Part shown: piece by piece, positions 4,284 to 50,342 of the stretch
How the letters are laid out: each line of letters starts with the position of its first letter
Numbering within the stretch: the first letter of the stretch is position 1
Source: Escherichia coli
GTDB taxonomy: Bacteria; Pseudomonadota; Gammaproteobacteria; Enterobacterales; Enterobacteriaceae
Reading direction: 5' to 3' (one strand)
Length of the DNA: 64,000 bases
NCBI RefSeq assembly: GCF_003018255.1
Contig: NZ_CP027440.1
The notes under the pieces: generated by a model
Told to the model about the DNA's origin: nothing
Seen by the model: only the letters and a program-made list of their open reading frames with translations
Databases searched by the model: none
Made by a program: the position numbers and the translations under genes

Positions 4284-4520
4284 TTAGCGCTTACCTTCCG
4301 CCAGCAGCGGCGGGATGCTCGGCACCATCGGCGCGTCATCAATATCTTTCTGCGTCATGCGGAACGCTTCGGGATAATGTTCGCGGCTGGTGCGGCGTAG
4401 CGGTTCGGTATCGCGCCAGGTATAGAGGCAATGCTGGCACTGGTAGACCATCCAGACATCTTTTACCGGCGATTTCGCCATCACTTCAATCTGTTCATCG
4501 GCACAACGTGGACAAATCAT
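4284..4520 (-). CDS. ecdD: small zinc-ribbon subunit of a UbiD-type hydroxyarylic acid decarboxylase (EcdD/KpdD/BsdD-like)
   Basis: 78-aa ORF with CPRC...CQHC; immediately downstream of and co-oriented with the UbiD-like gene. Confidence 0.75.
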   Translation of the reverse strand: MICPRCADEQIEVMAKSPVKDVWMVYQCQHCLYTWRDTEPLRRTSREHYPEAFRMTQKDIDDAPMVPSIPPLLAEGKR

Positions 4521-4530
4521 CTTGTTCTCC

Positions 4531-5958
4531 TTATTGACGTGCGGCCAGCATAGCGGTCAGTTTTTCAGCCCAGGCTTTGGTTTCCGGTAAGTCCACCACC
4601 GGCTGGCTGTAGTGACCACGGTTGTCCGGGGCGACAGGCGTGGTGGCGTCGATAATCAGCTTGTCGGTGATCCCCGCCGGACTTGAGCCAGGGTCGAGTT
4701 CCAGCACGGACATATTCGGCAACTGTACCAAATCCCCTGCCGGGTTCACTTTCGAGGAGAGCGCCCACATCACCTGCGGCAGGTTGAACGGATCAACGTC
4801 TTCATCGACCATAATCACCATCTTCACGTAGCCCAGACCGTGCGGCGTGGTCATCGCACGCAGGCCCACCGCGCGGGCAAAGCCGCCGTAGCGTTTTTTG
4901 GTGGAGATAATCGCCAGCAGGCCGTGGGTGTACATGGCGTTTACCGCCTGCACTTCCGGGAACTCGGCTTTCAGTTGTTGATACAGCGGCACGCAGGTGG
5001 CAGGCCCCATCAGGTAGTCGATTTCGGTCCACGGCATACCAAGATAGAGCGATTCGAAAATCGGTTTGGTACGGTAAGAGACTTTATCGATACGCACCAC
5101 GGTCATGTTACGCCCGCCGGAGTAGTGGCCGGTAAACTCACCGAACGGCCCTTCAATCTCACGTTTACGACTTTCGATAACCCCTTCGAGGATCACTTCC
5201 GAGCCCCACGGCACATCAAAACCGGTCAGCGGGGCGGTGGCGATCGGGTACGGGCTTTCGCGCAGCGCGCCTGCCATTTCGTACTCAGACTGATCGTATT
5301 TCAGCGGCGTGGCCCCCATTAGGGTGATGATCGGATCGTTACCGAGTGTGATGGCAATCGGCAGATCTTCACCGCGCTCTTCTGCTTTATGCAGATGCAG
5401 GGCGATATCGTGCATCGGCACCGGTTGCAGGCCGAGCTTACGCTTGCCCTTCACTTCCATGCGGTAGATGCCGACGTTCTGCTTGCCGAAGTTATCCGGG
5501 TCGAGCGGATCGCGGGAAACCACGCACGCTTTATCGAGATAGAAACCGCCATCACCGTCGTTTAAACGAAACAGCGGCAGAATATTGAACAGGTTGATCT
5601 CGTCGCCATCGACGGTGTTCTGCGCCCAGGCTGGATTGGCGCGGCGCTCCGGGGCAATGGGGAAGTTATCCCAGCGGCGGATAAACTCATCAATCTGTTT
5701 TTTAACCGGGGTGTTTGGCGGCAGGCCGAGGGAAATCGCGTGGTTCTGCCAGGAACCGATGGTGTTCATTGCCACGCGGGCATCGATAAAGCCGCGAATA
5801 TTATCAAACCAAAGCGCGGGCGCGCCGTCGCCGATACGCCCGGTGGCGTTGGCTGCGGCTGCCAGATCCGGTTCCGCGTTCACCTCTTCGCTGATTTTCA
5901 GTAACTGGCCGTGGTCATCAAGCGCCTGTAAAAAGCTGCGTAAATCATCAAATGCCAT
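4531..5958 (-). CDS. ecdC: UbiD-family non-oxidative aromatic acid decarboxylase (EcdC/KpdC-like)
   Basis: 475-aa ORF with UbiD-like N-terminus MAFDDLRSFLQALDDHGQLLKI; start overlaps the upstream stop. Confidence 0.85.
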   Translation of the reverse strand: MAFDDLRSFLQALDDHGQLLKISEEVNAEPDLAAAANATGRIGDGAPALWFDNIRGFIDARVAMNTIGSWQNHAISLGLPPNTPVKKQIDEFIRRWDNFPIAPERRANPAWAQNTVDGDEINLFNILPLFRLNDGDGGFYLDKACVVSRDPLDPDNFGKQNVGIYRMEVKGKRKLGLQPVPMHDIALHLHKAEERGEDLPIAITLGNDPIITLMGATPLKYDQSEYEMAGALRESPYPIATAPLTGFDVPWGSEVILEGVIESRKREIEGPFGEFTGHYSGGRNMTVVRIDKVSYRTKPIFESLYLGMPWTEIDYLMGPATCVPLYQQLKAEFPEVQAVNAMYTHGLLAIISTKKRYGGFARAVGLRAMTTPHGLGYVKMVIMVDEDVDPFNLPQVMWALSSKVNPAGDLVQLPNMSVLELDPGSSPAGITDKLIIDATTPVAPDNRGHYSQPVVDLPETKAWAEKLTAMLAARQ

Positions 5959-6551
5959 TATTCATTCTCCTGAGAAAAATTCCGGGCCTGCGGCAATCCT
6001 TGCCAGCGCCTGGCGTGAGGATGTTCGAGGCCAAATTGATCCAGCACGCGGGCTACCACGTGGTGGACAATGTCATCTACCGTTTCGGGATGGTTATAAA
6101 AGGCAGGCATCGGCGGCACCATCGCCACGCCCATGCGCGAAAGTGCGAGCATATTTTCGAGATGGATTGTGCTAAGCGGCATTTCACGCGGCACCAGCAC
6201 CAGTTTGCGGCCTTCTTTGAGCACGACGTCCGCCGCGCGCCCCACCAGGCCATCGGCGTAACCAGCGCGGATACCGGCGAGCGTTTTCATACTGCATGGA
6301 ATAACGATCATGCCGTCGGTACGAAAGGAGCCGGAAGAGATAGTCGCCGCCTGATCCGCCGGGTTATGGCTGAAGTCTGCGAGGGCGGCAACATCGCGAG
6401 CGCTGTAAGGCGTTTCCAGTTCAATCGTGATTTTCGCCCACTTCGACATCACTAGATGAGTCTCGACATTCGGCATCTCCCGCAGCGCTTGCAGTAATGC
6501 CACACCAAGAGGCGCACCGGTAGCCCCTGTCATCCCGACGATCAGTTTCAT
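5958..6551 (-). CDS. ecdB: UbiX/Pad1-family flavin prenyltransferase (EcdB/KpdB-like)
   Basis: 197-aa ORF with MKLIVGMTGATGA flavoprotein motif; first gene of the three-gene minus-strand operon. Confidence 0.85.
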   Translation of the reverse strand: MKLIVGMTGATGAPLGVALLQALREMPNVETHLVMSKWAKITIELETPYSARDVAALADFSHNPADQAATISSGSFRTDGMIVIPCSMKTLAGIRAGYADGLVGRAADVVLKEGRKLVLVPREMPLSTIHLENMLALSRMGVAMVPPMPAFYNHPETVDDIVHHVVARVLDQFGLEHPHARRWQGLPQARNFSQENE

Positions 6552-6568
6552 TGCTTACTCTCTTAATT

Positions 6569-6582
6569 GTTCGTATACGAAC
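6569..6582. promoter_or_regulatory. 14-bp perfect palindrome GTTCGTATACGAAC in the divergent promoter region (candidate MarR-type operator)
   Basis: Perfect dyad about 18 nt upstream of the ecdB start codon, between the divergent MarR gene and the decarboxylase operon. Confidence 0.35.
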
Positions 6583-6697
6583 GTTATTATTAACATACTC
6601 CTTCATTTCCACAGCGGCAAGGATTGAAAAGTAACAACATCTTCTTCGTCACTGAAAAACCGCTATGATAGCGACAGAGAATTAGCCCGGAGTTTAC

Positions 6698-7105
6698 ATG
6701 GCGTTACGAAATAAAGCGTTCCATCAGTTACGACAGCTTTTTCAGCAGCATACAGCTCGCTGGCAGCACGAGTTACCTGACCTGACCAAACCACAGTACG
6801 CGGTGATGCGCGCCATTGCTGATAAGCCTGGTATCGAACAGGTGGCACTGATAGAAGCAGCAGTCAGCACCAAAGCAACGCTGGCAGAAATGTTGGCAAG
6901 AATGGAAAATCGTGGCTTAGTCAGACGTGAACATGACGCCGCTGACAAGCGGCGACGCTTTGTCTGGCTGACTGCCGAAGGAGAAAAGGTACTTGCTGCG
7001 GCGATCCCCATTGGTGACAGTGTGGATGAGGAATTTTTGGGGCGTTTGAGTGCAGAAGAGCAGGAGCTGTTTATGCAGTTGGTGCGCAAGATGATGAGCA
7101 AATAG
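6698..7105 (+). CDS. MarR/SlyA-family transcriptional regulator
   Basis: 135-aa ORF with winged-helix MarR pattern, divergent from the decarboxylase operon. Confidence 0.8.
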   Translation: MALRNKAFHQLRQLFQQHTARWQHELPDLTKPQYAVMRAIADKPGIEQVALIEAAVSTKATLAEMLARMENRGLVRREHDAADKRRRFVWLTAEGEKVLAAAIPIGDSVDEEFLGRLSAEEQELFMQLVRKMMSK

Positions 7106-22879: not shown

Positions 22880-23362
22880 TTACGCATTTTTGTTTGTGGT
22901 CAATACAAAATCTTCCAGAAGTTGCTGGCGTTCGCGCTTTCCCCACCAGGTCAACATCCTGGCCATTAATGGCCAGTCAAGTACGGGTTCGGCGTGAGTA
23001 AGTAATCGACGTAACTGGACCATATCGGCTGTTCTGTCAGCCCGAATTAATTGAAAGATACGGCGCTCGTTAATTCTTCCACTATTGGCTAAAGCTCTTC
23101 CCAACGAGATACCTGTTGTTTGCTCCGTTTTTTTGTCCTGATGTCGGATGACATTCTTTCCTGCGCTCAGGCAAAACACCATGCGCAAAAGAGCCTGCTG
23201 GTGACGTGGGTTTTCCCAACCAAAAGATTGCACCAGCCTATAAAACGCAGGGATATCGCGTAATTCATCAGGTTCTGAAACACGTCTAATTTGCGCACAT
23301 GCTCCATTATCCAGTTGTTGCCAGGCTCGATATAAAGCCATTGCATCAATTTCATCAGCCAT
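22880..23362 (-). CDS. casB: Cse2 (CasB) Cascade small subunit
   Basis: 160-aa ORF; 8-nt overlap with the casA 3' end. Confidence 0.95.
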   Translation of the reverse strand: MADEIDAMALYRAWQQLDNGACAQIRRVSEPDELRDIPAFYRLVQSFGWENPRHQQALLRMVFCLSAGKNVIRHQDKKTEQTTGISLGRALANSGRINERRIFQLIRADRTADMVQLRRLLTHAEPVLDWPLMARMLTWWGKRERQQLLEDFVLTTNKNA

Positions 23363-25205: not shown

Positions 25206-25234
25206 ACTTTCCCTACTTAAGTAGGGATAAACCG
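25206..25234 (+). repeat. solitary degenerate CRISPR-repeat-like hairpin, sense on the plus strand (antisense to cas genes and arrays)
   Basis: ACTTTCCCTACTTAAGTAGGGATAAACCG against the canonical sense repeat GAGTTCCCCGCGCCAGCGGGGATAAACCG: same length, 19/29 identical, terminal GGGATAAACCG identical, 6-bp stem and 4-nt loop kept by compensatory changes. Confidence 0.6.
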
Positions 25235-28302: not shown

Positions 28303-29037
28303 TTACCCTTCGTGTAACCCACATTCCCTTTTTAAGCCAAAGAAACGCGTTTCTTCTTCCGCCATGCCGGGTTCCCATTTACGGGTTGTATGGGTATCAC
28401 CGACCGATAAATATCCTTCGTCCCATAATGGGTGATATTTCAGGCCATGTTTTTGCAGGTACTGATAAATAGTTCGGTTATCCCAGTCGATAATCGGCAG
28501 CACTTTAAATACGCCACGCTGAATTGCCAGCACCGGTAAATTGGCGCGGCTGCCGGATTGTTCACGGCGCAGGCCAGCAAACCAGGTTTGCGCATTCAGT
28601 TCTTTCAGCGCCCGGTTCATCGGTTCGACTTTGTTGATCTCGTTGTACTTCTCAATCCCCTCAACACCCTGCTCCCACAGTTTACCGTAGCGCGCTTCCT
28701 GCCAGGCGGCGCTTTCGGTAGCGCGGTACACTTTCAGGTTGAGCTTGAGTTTGTCCGTTAACTCGTCAATAAAGCGGTAGGTTTCTGGGAACAGATAGCC
28801 GGTATCGGTGAGGATCACCGGAATATCCGGGCGAATCTGATTCACCAGATGCAGGCTCACCGCCGCCTGAATGCCAAAGCTGGAAGAAAGTACATATTCA
28901 CCGGGCAGATTATCCAGCGCCCAGGCAACGCGGCCTTCAGCGTCCAGTTTTTCCAGTTCGGCGTTAGTTTCCGCCAGCGCCAGAATGCGATCTACCTTCG
29001 GCAGTTCGTTCAGGGCGTTTAGATCGAGTTTGGACAT
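28303..29037 (-). CDS. cysH: phosphoadenosine phosphosulfate (PAPS) reductase
   Basis: Start at [14 protein letters not shown], giving 244 aa; C-terminal ECGLH motif. Confidence 0.95.
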
Positions 29038-48617: not shown

Positions 48618-48647
48618 TCACTAGTTAAACTGAAACTCCAGACAAAC

Positions 48648-48670
48648 AACGCGTACCCAGGGTACGCGTT
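48648..48670 (-). other. 10-bp stem-loop in the pyrG-eno intergenic region (possible partial terminator or processing site)
   Basis: AACGCGTACC-CAG-GGTACGCGTT perfect inverted repeat. Confidence 0.4.
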
Positions 48671-48689
48671 GCCGTTCTAACTTTTTTAC

Positions 48690-50342
<1,653 letters not shown>

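Follow-up and report, generated by a model that had tools for sequence, protein, structure and literature searches.

The two palindromes of the hosA-ecdB intergenic region of Escherichia coli: the known HosA operator and a probable hosA -10 element

Introduction

The palindrome closest to ecdB in the divergent hosA-ecdB intergenic region of Escherichia coli (hereafter dyad 1) is the already known and published operator of the regulator HosA for the 4-hydroxybenzoate decarboxylase operon. A second palindrome (dyad 2) lies on the hosA side of the same region, and the best explanation of the pair, in which we place high confidence, is that dyad 1 is the HosA operator and that the core of dyad 2 is the -10 element of a proximal hosA promoter, not an operator.

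According to this explanation, the site GTTCG-N4-CGAAC, a short way past the transcription start of ecdBCD, would be occupied by a HosA dimer, which, while bound to this operator, would block RNA polymerase. The binding of 4-hydroxybenzoate, which is the substrate of the decarboxylase, would then cause HosA to leave the DNA, and ecdBCD would be switched on. The core of dyad 2 (G-C-TATGAT) would form the -10 region of the proximal hosA promoter, and a few flanking bases would simply happen, in Escherichia, to stretch the symmetry of this element to 13 bp.

The locus and its genes

The window, i.e., the whole 64-kb stretch of E. coli DNA that was analysed, carries the hosA-ecdBCD module, and the locus is the rpoS-mutS variable region of Escherichia, recognized as such because rpoS and nlpD come after hosA. 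The intergenic region itself (6552-6697) is the exact gap of 146 bp between the start codon of ecdB (6551-6549, minus strand) and that of the divergent MarR-family gene (6698, plus strand), and it was found in 2389 of 5426 complete E. coli genomes (~44%), in every case on the chromosome. The features of the region and the neighbouring genes are presented in Table 1.

The genes had been named in the earlier note from the letters alone, and these names hold up, given that VdcB, VdcC, and VdcD each exceed their NCBIfam cut-offs and that the MarR protein corresponds to HosA. The operon product belongs to the class of the non-oxidative hydroxyarylic acid decarboxylases, of which VdcB is subunit B in NCBIfam. 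In the other genera, the block aligned with the Shine-Dalgarno region of ecdB reads cacctca (TGAGGTG on the minus strand), and the block cgGaGt at the Shine-Dalgarno of hosA is conserved across genera.

Table 1. Coordinates of the genes, palindromes, and predicted promoter elements, given as positions in the window.
Feature	Position	Strand	Details
ecdD/vdcD, small subunit D	4284-4520	-	NCBIfam VdcD 120 bits, cut-off 30
ecdC/vdcC, UbiD-family decarboxylase subunit C	4531-5958	-	NCBIfam VdcC 788 bits, cut-off 650
ecdB/vdcB, UbiX-type flavin prenyltransferase, first gene of the repressed operon	5958-6551	-	197 aa; NCBIfam VdcB 311 bits, cut-off 290; RefSeq annotation in E. coli genomes
Shine-Dalgarno region of ecdB, AAGAGAG	6558-6564	-	6 nt before the ATG; read from the sequence
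Dyad 1, HosA operator (box 1), GTTCGTATACGAAC, GTTCG-TATA-CGAAC	6569-6582	.	Perfect 7+7 palindrome (script)
Predicted ecdBCD -10 hexamer, TATGTT	6592-6597	-	Script scan; block tAa..TAC kept across genera
Predicted ecdBCD -35 hexamer, TTGCCG, 17-bp spacer	6615-6620	-	Script scan; CAAg block (cTTG on the minus strand) conserved across genera
Dyad 2, CGCTATGATAGCG, core holding the predicted hosA -10 hexamer	6661-6673	+	Perfect 6+1+6 palindrome (script)
Predicted hosA proximal -10 hexamer, TATGAT, with G(-14) at 6662 and C(-13) at 6663	6664-6669	+	Conservation
Shine-Dalgarno of hosA, GGAG	6689-6692	+	5 nt before the ATG; read from the sequence
hosA, MarR-family repressor responding to 4-hydroxybenzoate	6698-7105	+	135 aa; PDB 8aga match

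When the MarR-family protein was compared with the PDB, the match was to entry 8aga, "Transcriptional regulator HosA" (E=7e-84), with 8pq4 and other entries under the same name. It also shares 96% identity with the protein cluster common in E. coli, and a Klebsiella protein that is 81% identical to the regulator of the window is named HosA by one source. Judged by these sequence comparisons, the adjoining regulator is an orthologue of HosA.

The best NCBIfam matches of HosA and EcdB are to BagL/FevM and BagM/FevK, respectively, of the Streptomyces bagremycin and ferroverdin clusters, both below the cut-off. Given these matches, the pairing of a MarR regulator with a UbiX-type enzyme would be one that recurs in a distant phylum.

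Presence of the palindromes and their chance expectation

Both of the perfect palindromes described in the earlier note, GTTCGTATACGAAC and CGCTATGATAGCG, were confirmed by direct reading and by script. The distances that had been given as about 18 nt (ecdB) and about 25 nt (MarR) come to 17 nt between dyad 1 and the ATG of ecdB, and 24 nt between dyad 2 and the ATG of the MarR gene.

Palindromes of both sizes are not enriched overall in the 64-kb window, where five perfect palindromes with arms of at least 7 nt were observed vs. 3.9 expected (64000/4^7), and 20 palindromes of the 6+1+6 form vs. 15.6 expected. For one region of 146 bp, the expectation is ~0.009 for dyad 1 and ~0.036 for dyad 2. 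A chance origin of dyad 1 in the 146 bp is thus unlikely, and the case of dyad 2 against chance is only marginal, and weaker still once other forms of palindrome are allowed. As palindromes are not enriched in the window and dyad 2 is marginal, the significance of these sequences depends on their conservation, which, in the alignments described below, is overwhelming for dyad 1 and limited to the core for dyad 2.

A number of other palindromes were recorded in the window. The longest perfect palindrome is found at 48647-48671 (12+1+12, CAACGCGTACCCAGGGTACGCGTTG), in the 87-bp gap between two minus-strand ORFs of 545 aa and 432 aa, and, as both of these ORFs lie on the same strand, it looks like an inter-cistronic hairpin or a terminator. 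Further perfect palindromes, with arms of 8-9 nt, are found at 22959-22976, inside a minus-strand ORF of 160 aa, at 25210-25227, between minus-strand ORFs of 502 aa and 888 aa, and at 28340-28355 and 49139-49155.

Dyad 1 and the published HosA operator

The proposal that dyad 1 might be a substrate-responsive operator of the MarR protein is borne out by the literature, in which both the binding of HosA and its release by 4-hydroxybenzoate have been demonstrated for the identical sequence. For example, Cao et al. (Sci Adv 2018; PMC6261655) used a 43-bp DNA "containing 14-bp TFBS of HosA", a palindromic site from E. coli UMN026, and purified HosA bound DNA with the 14-bp site in EMSA and biolayer interferometry (BLI), from which it was dissociated by 4-HBA. 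The oligonucleotides of these authors, which read ...TAATAATAAC-G(T)TTCGTATACGAAC-AATTAAGAGA..., present the site in its native context (PMC6261655), and the flanks TAATAATAAC and AATTAAGAGA match the minus strand of the window at 6559-6592. Similarly, Liang et al. (Nat Commun 2019; PMC6694116) placed CGTTCGTATACGAACA, which is the reverse complement of 6568-6583 of the window, within unrelated flanking DNA, where it was bound by CBD-HosA and released by p-HBA.

Both of these papers (PMC6261655 and PMC6694116) cite Roy & Ranjan 2016 for the HosA site. As relayed by two preprints, Roy & Ranjan 2016 reported that HosA represses the HAD operon and itself, that 4-HBA relieves the repression, and that the palindromic HosA site lies downstream of the transcription start site (TSS) of the operon. 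A single palindromic HosA site is described in the published work, including PMC6261655.

Positions 6569-6582 of the window are identical to the HosA site in the genome of E. coli 7/2 and in the published EMSA/BLI oligonucleotides. The correspondence with the UMN026-type site extends to the same 14 bp, the same flanks, and the same place between hosA and the first decarboxylase gene, with an orthologous regulator, and the two intergenic regions differ only at neutral positions, such as those of the promoter spacer.

In the oligonucleotide tables of both papers (PMC6261655 table S1; PMC6694116 supplementary oligo table), the HosA site is printed with an extra T, as GTTTCGTATACGAAC, which has 15 nt, is not self-complementary, and yields non-complementary strands. 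The exact 59-nt published oligonucleotide has no 100% match among the E. coli genomes, and the HosA site is GTTCGTATACGAAC in a genome that has the UMN026-type context. The extra T is therefore a typographical error and not a real variant, and this one-base error could mislead anyone copying the HosA site from these tables.

Conservation of dyad 1 across the orthologous loci

An ortholog set of 80 hosA loci was obtained through a scan of one genome per species combined with a HosA alignment, and includes Escherichia, Klebsiella, Citrobacter, Salmonella, Enterobacter, Kluyvera, Kosakonia, Leclercia, Lelliottia, Phytobacter, Atlantibacter, Rahnella, and others. In nearly all of the 80 loci, ecdB and hosA are transcribed divergently and stand 145-175 bp apart. 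The conservation counts are based on 74 distinct aligned hosA-ecdB intergenic regions, which represent some 20 genera, from Escherichia to Rahnella.

The arms of dyad 1 (GTTCG...CGAAC) are invariant at nine of their ten positions in all 74 sequences; at the tenth (6582), 71 sequences have C and three, all from Rahnella, have T. The remaining positions of the region have a mean majority identity of 62% across the same sequences. When scored as a HosA box, the site matches at all ten arm positions in 72 of the 76 loci, and at nine of them in the others. The central tetranucleotide was found only as TATA, TGTA, CATA, TACA, TATG, or CACA, i.e., it varies through transitions that preserve the alternation of pyrimidine and purine. 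Because the arms are near-invariant and the centre alternates between pyrimidine and purine, the consensus of the HosA operator can be written as GTTCG-YRYR-CGAAC. In the 64-kb window, a search for other HosA targets within one mismatch found none, dyad 1 being the sole match.

A number of the orthologous loci have a different organization. There is no ecdB beside hosA (tblastn) in five of them (L053, L062, L068, L072, and L079), in which the HosA box is kept upstream of the divergent gene, on the upstream side of hosA at ~2850; in L062, the divergent gene is an ORF of 475 aa, which is the size of ecdC. In Enterobacteriaceae bacterium LSJC7 (locus L070, 2419-3001), an insertion of ~430 bp splits box 1 and ecdB from the TATGAT block and hosA, so that box 1 remains with ecdB and the TATGAT block with hosA. 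Finally, Citrobacter sp. HRGM_Genome_0066 has one contig with a hosA that is 99% identical to that of the window (Escherichia type), and a second contig with a Citrobacter-type copy (77%; L002 vs. L019), and this bin is probably mixed.

The predicted ecdBCD promoter and the position of the operator

The pair TTGCCG-17-TATGTT is the only minus-strand promoter candidate with a sensible geometry that was returned by the script scan. The TSS predicted from it lies at ~6585, which would place dyad 1 at ~+4 to +17, in agreement with the placement of the HosA site downstream of the operon TSS in the literature. A comparison of ten sequences from Escherichia shows both hexamers retained (with the -10 as TATGTT or TATTTT) and the spacer as the most variable stretch. 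This combination of kept hexamers and variable spacer is the pattern that would be expected of a real promoter.

The core of dyad 2 and the predicted hosA promoter

The core of dyad 2 is most likely an ordinary -10 element of hosA, as suggested by the way in which its positions are conserved. Among the 74 sequences, T6664, A6665, T6666, A6668, and T6669 are each kept in 69-73 (A6665 in 73 and T6669 in 69), and 73 sequences have G or C, in roughly equal numbers, at the centre, where the consensus A never occurs. The flanks are asymmetric, with G6662 in 70 sequences vs. eight for its dyad partner C6672, and C6663 in 62 vs. 54 for its mirror G6671; A6670 is found in 62, and the outer positions C6661 and G6673 in 25 and 46, respectively. 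Given that a site for a dimer is expected to be symmetric in its conservation and that the conservation of dyad 2 is one-sided, dyad 2 does not appear to be a symmetric dimer site. The full symmetry of 13 bp was seen only in Escherichia, where it stems from a flanking A-to-C difference at 6672, and CGCTATGATAGCA in E. coli 7/2 and CGCTATGATATCG in Escherichia sp. E1V33 are variants that break the dyad with no compensation.

The candidate hosA -10 hexamer, TAT(G/C)AT, is found in 68 of 75 loci (TATCAT in 37 and TATGAT in 31), and is preceded by G at -14 in 73 and by C at -13 in 65. The hexamer stands just upstream of the conserved GGAG, and 27-31 nt separate its end from the ATG of hosA in nearly all of the Enterobacteriaceae loci. 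In most of the other genera, TTAAAA is placed exactly 17 bp upstream, and the best -35 match is TTAAAA or TTATAA in 41/75 loci, 17 bp away in nearly all of them, whereas in the window and the other Escherichia the best -35 match for TATGAT is 2/6. The Escherichia intergenic regions have 145-147 bp vs. 157-174 bp elsewhere, with ~25 bp missing at ~6646-6650, and the poor -35 of hosA in Escherichia would be due to this loss, as the lost segment contains the TTAAAA hexamer of the other genera. A weak -35 and a C at -13 are tendencies of sigma-S-dependent promoters, and would suit a hosA promoter of this type. A standard promoter scan reported no promoter in 6552-6697, and a literature search by locus tag for TSS or RpoS-regulon data on hosA yielded only a mention in a strain construction.

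A symmetric -10 would itself account for part of the palindrome. Bacterial promoters have been described in which the -10 element is symmetric (TANNNTA), its -11A and -7T being reciprocal (PMC10268837), and a -10 with -11A and -7T that can be read on both strands is inherently near-palindromic, a form that is fitted by TATGATA. The 13-bp extension of dyad 2 differs from the symmetric sigma-70 -10 elements (Warman et al. 2021; PMC10268837) in that it falls outside this motif. Both of the predicted -10 elements of the region fit the bidirectional TANNNTA form, namely TATGTTA (6591-6597, minus strand) and TATGATA (6664-6670, plus strand).

Alternative readings of the palindromes

In the earlier note, dyad 2 was proposed as a second, autoregulatory operator of the MarR protein, which would require that HosA be bound in a different sequence mode, from where it would repress the hosA promoter. 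This proposal does not stand up well, and we regard it as very improbable. The autorepression of HosA is indeed reported in the preprints, dyad 2 overlaps the predicted hosA -10, which is a classic position for a repressor, and the 13-bp palindrome is perfect in most of the Escherichia sequences. On the other hand, dyad 2 is unlike the HosA box, given that no 14-mer overlapping 6661-6673 is among the three best matches to the box in the window, the third of which has only 6/10 arm positions. Its outer arms vary across genera, as the counts for C at 6672 and 6661 attest, its dyad is broken and uncompensated in E. coli 7/2 and Escherichia sp. E1V33, its core is directional and resembles a -10, and the published work reports one palindromic site. 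There is also a small chance that another dimeric regulator binds CTAT-S-ATAG, the symmetric core of dyad 2, or else that this core serves as a bidirectional -10 for transcription of hosA on one side and ecdB on the other. Conservation is fair for the pairs C6663/G6671 and T6664/A6670, the G or C at the centre of 73 of the 74 sequences would be tolerable to a strand-symmetric recognition, and TATGATA fits the bidirectional TANNNTA form (PMC10268837); the C6663/G6671 pair and the G/C centre would likewise be compatible with a small symmetric site for a protein. However, the right side of the core decays faster (A6670 in 62/74 and G6671 in 54/74) than the left side (G6662 in 70/74), and the position of a -35 on the minus strand coincides with the Shine-Dalgarno region of hosA (CTCCGG), which contains no -35-like sequence. 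We know of no E. coli regulator with a CTATNATAG site.

One other reading would have the dyads act as RNA hairpins, with dyad 1 forming a stabilising or attenuating stem-loop in the 5' UTR of ecdB, or with either dyad acting as an intrinsic terminator, and this can be given hardly any credence. Both dyads were flagged by the terminator scan, and dyad 1, which is probably in the ecdB leader, could form a stem of 5 bp with a 4-nt loop, but the hairpins are weak (-4.9 and -4.8 kcal/mol, with z=-1.7 for dyad 1, and -4.9 and -5.2 kcal/mol on the strands that carry the T-runs) and have no Rfam match. In addition, the arms of dyad 1, with nine of ten positions invariant, present no compensatory change, and this invariance therefore fits a sequence-specific recognition by a protein, and not a structure that depends only on pairing. 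As for termination, neither dyad is preceded by the end of a gene or ORF on the strand of the T-run, and the T-run that follows dyad 2 is not conserved outside Escherichia; intrinsic termination was thus rejected for both dyads on account of the weak hairpins, the lack of a same-strand gene end, and the unconserved T-run. The preferred reading of the two palindromes remains that of a HosA operator and a hosA -10 element.

Autorepression of hosA and the second HosA boxes

The preferred reading leaves the reported autorepression to be accounted for. Because dyad 1 lies ~90 bp upstream of TATGAT, the occlusion of the proximal promoter cannot explain the autorepression of hosA, and this distance therefore leaves room for either another contact of HosA or another hosA promoter. 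The latter has a candidate, given that the scan listed TTGTTC (6567-6572)-18-TAACAT (6591-6596) on the plus strand, with a predicted TSS at ~6603. The ecdB -10 on the minus strand, TATGTTA, is TAACATA on the plus strand, and the -35 of this distal hosA candidate overlaps the left arm of dyad 1. The predicted TSSs of distal hosA (~6603) and ecdB (~6585) are 18 bp apart, which is a typical bidirectional spacing (PMC10268837).

It is conceivable, if rather unlikely, that a single HosA operator controls both genes through this shared symmetric -10, with TATGAT as a separate basal promoter and with the second box lost in Escherichia. A single HosA dimer would then shut off both of the divergent transcripts, and the TATGAT of dyad 2 would be a HosA-independent basal promoter, possibly of the sigma-S type. 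If true, the shared -10 would account for the reported autorepression without the need for a second site.

The second box referred to here is a HosA-type sequence, GTTCG-yryr-CGATC (or CGGCC), with at least 8/10 arm positions, which is found in 35 of 76 loci. Its carriers are Klebsiella, Enterobacter, Kluyvera, Leclercia, Lelliottia, and Pseudocitrobacter (e.g., loci L007, L015, L020, and L042), in which it immediately precedes the ecdB -35, at a fixed centre-to-centre distance of 56-57 bp from box 1; its place in the window would be ~6622-6640. No such second box was seen in the loci of Escherichia, Salmonella, or the Citrobacter freundii group among the 76 scanned.

A third, degenerate HosA box, cTTCGtcacTGAAa (6644-6657), with 7/10 arm positions, was also considered in the spacer of the proximal hosA promoter, and was rejected as a chance match. 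The number of 7/10 matches to the box expected by chance in 146 bp is ~0.46 (binomial estimate), and the Escherichia variants TAAA and TGGA alter matching positions of this sequence.

Comparison with other MarR-family systems

The next closest solved homologue of HosA is PcaV of Streptomyces coelicolor (PDB 4fht/4g9y; E=2e-16), a MarR repressor of protocatechuate catabolism, whose sequence similarity to HosA is distant, and which differs from it in its operator sequence, target genes, and phylum. The MarR/marO locus and the divergent loci of the SlyA type share the architecture of hosA, i.e., a MarR gene that is divergent from its target, and also a dimer that sits on a short inverted repeat overlapping the promoter or the early transcribed region, from which it is released by a phenolic ligand. 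PcaV, like HosA, is a MarR dimer that is freed from a palindromic operator by a hydroxybenzoate-type ligand. MarR, for its part, has two operator sites in marO, through which it directly represses its own operon. In contrast with these two sites, there is a single HosA box in the Escherichia region of the window.

Conclusions

The switch formed by HosA and 4-hydroxybenzoate is already characterised, and is in use as a part of in vitro biosensors, so that the present finding matters little beyond the correct annotation of the region. The second palindrome would be best annotated as the core promoter of hosA, and not as an operator. The operator consensus, GTTCG-YRYR-CGAAC, is essentially invariant across some 20 enterobacterial genera.
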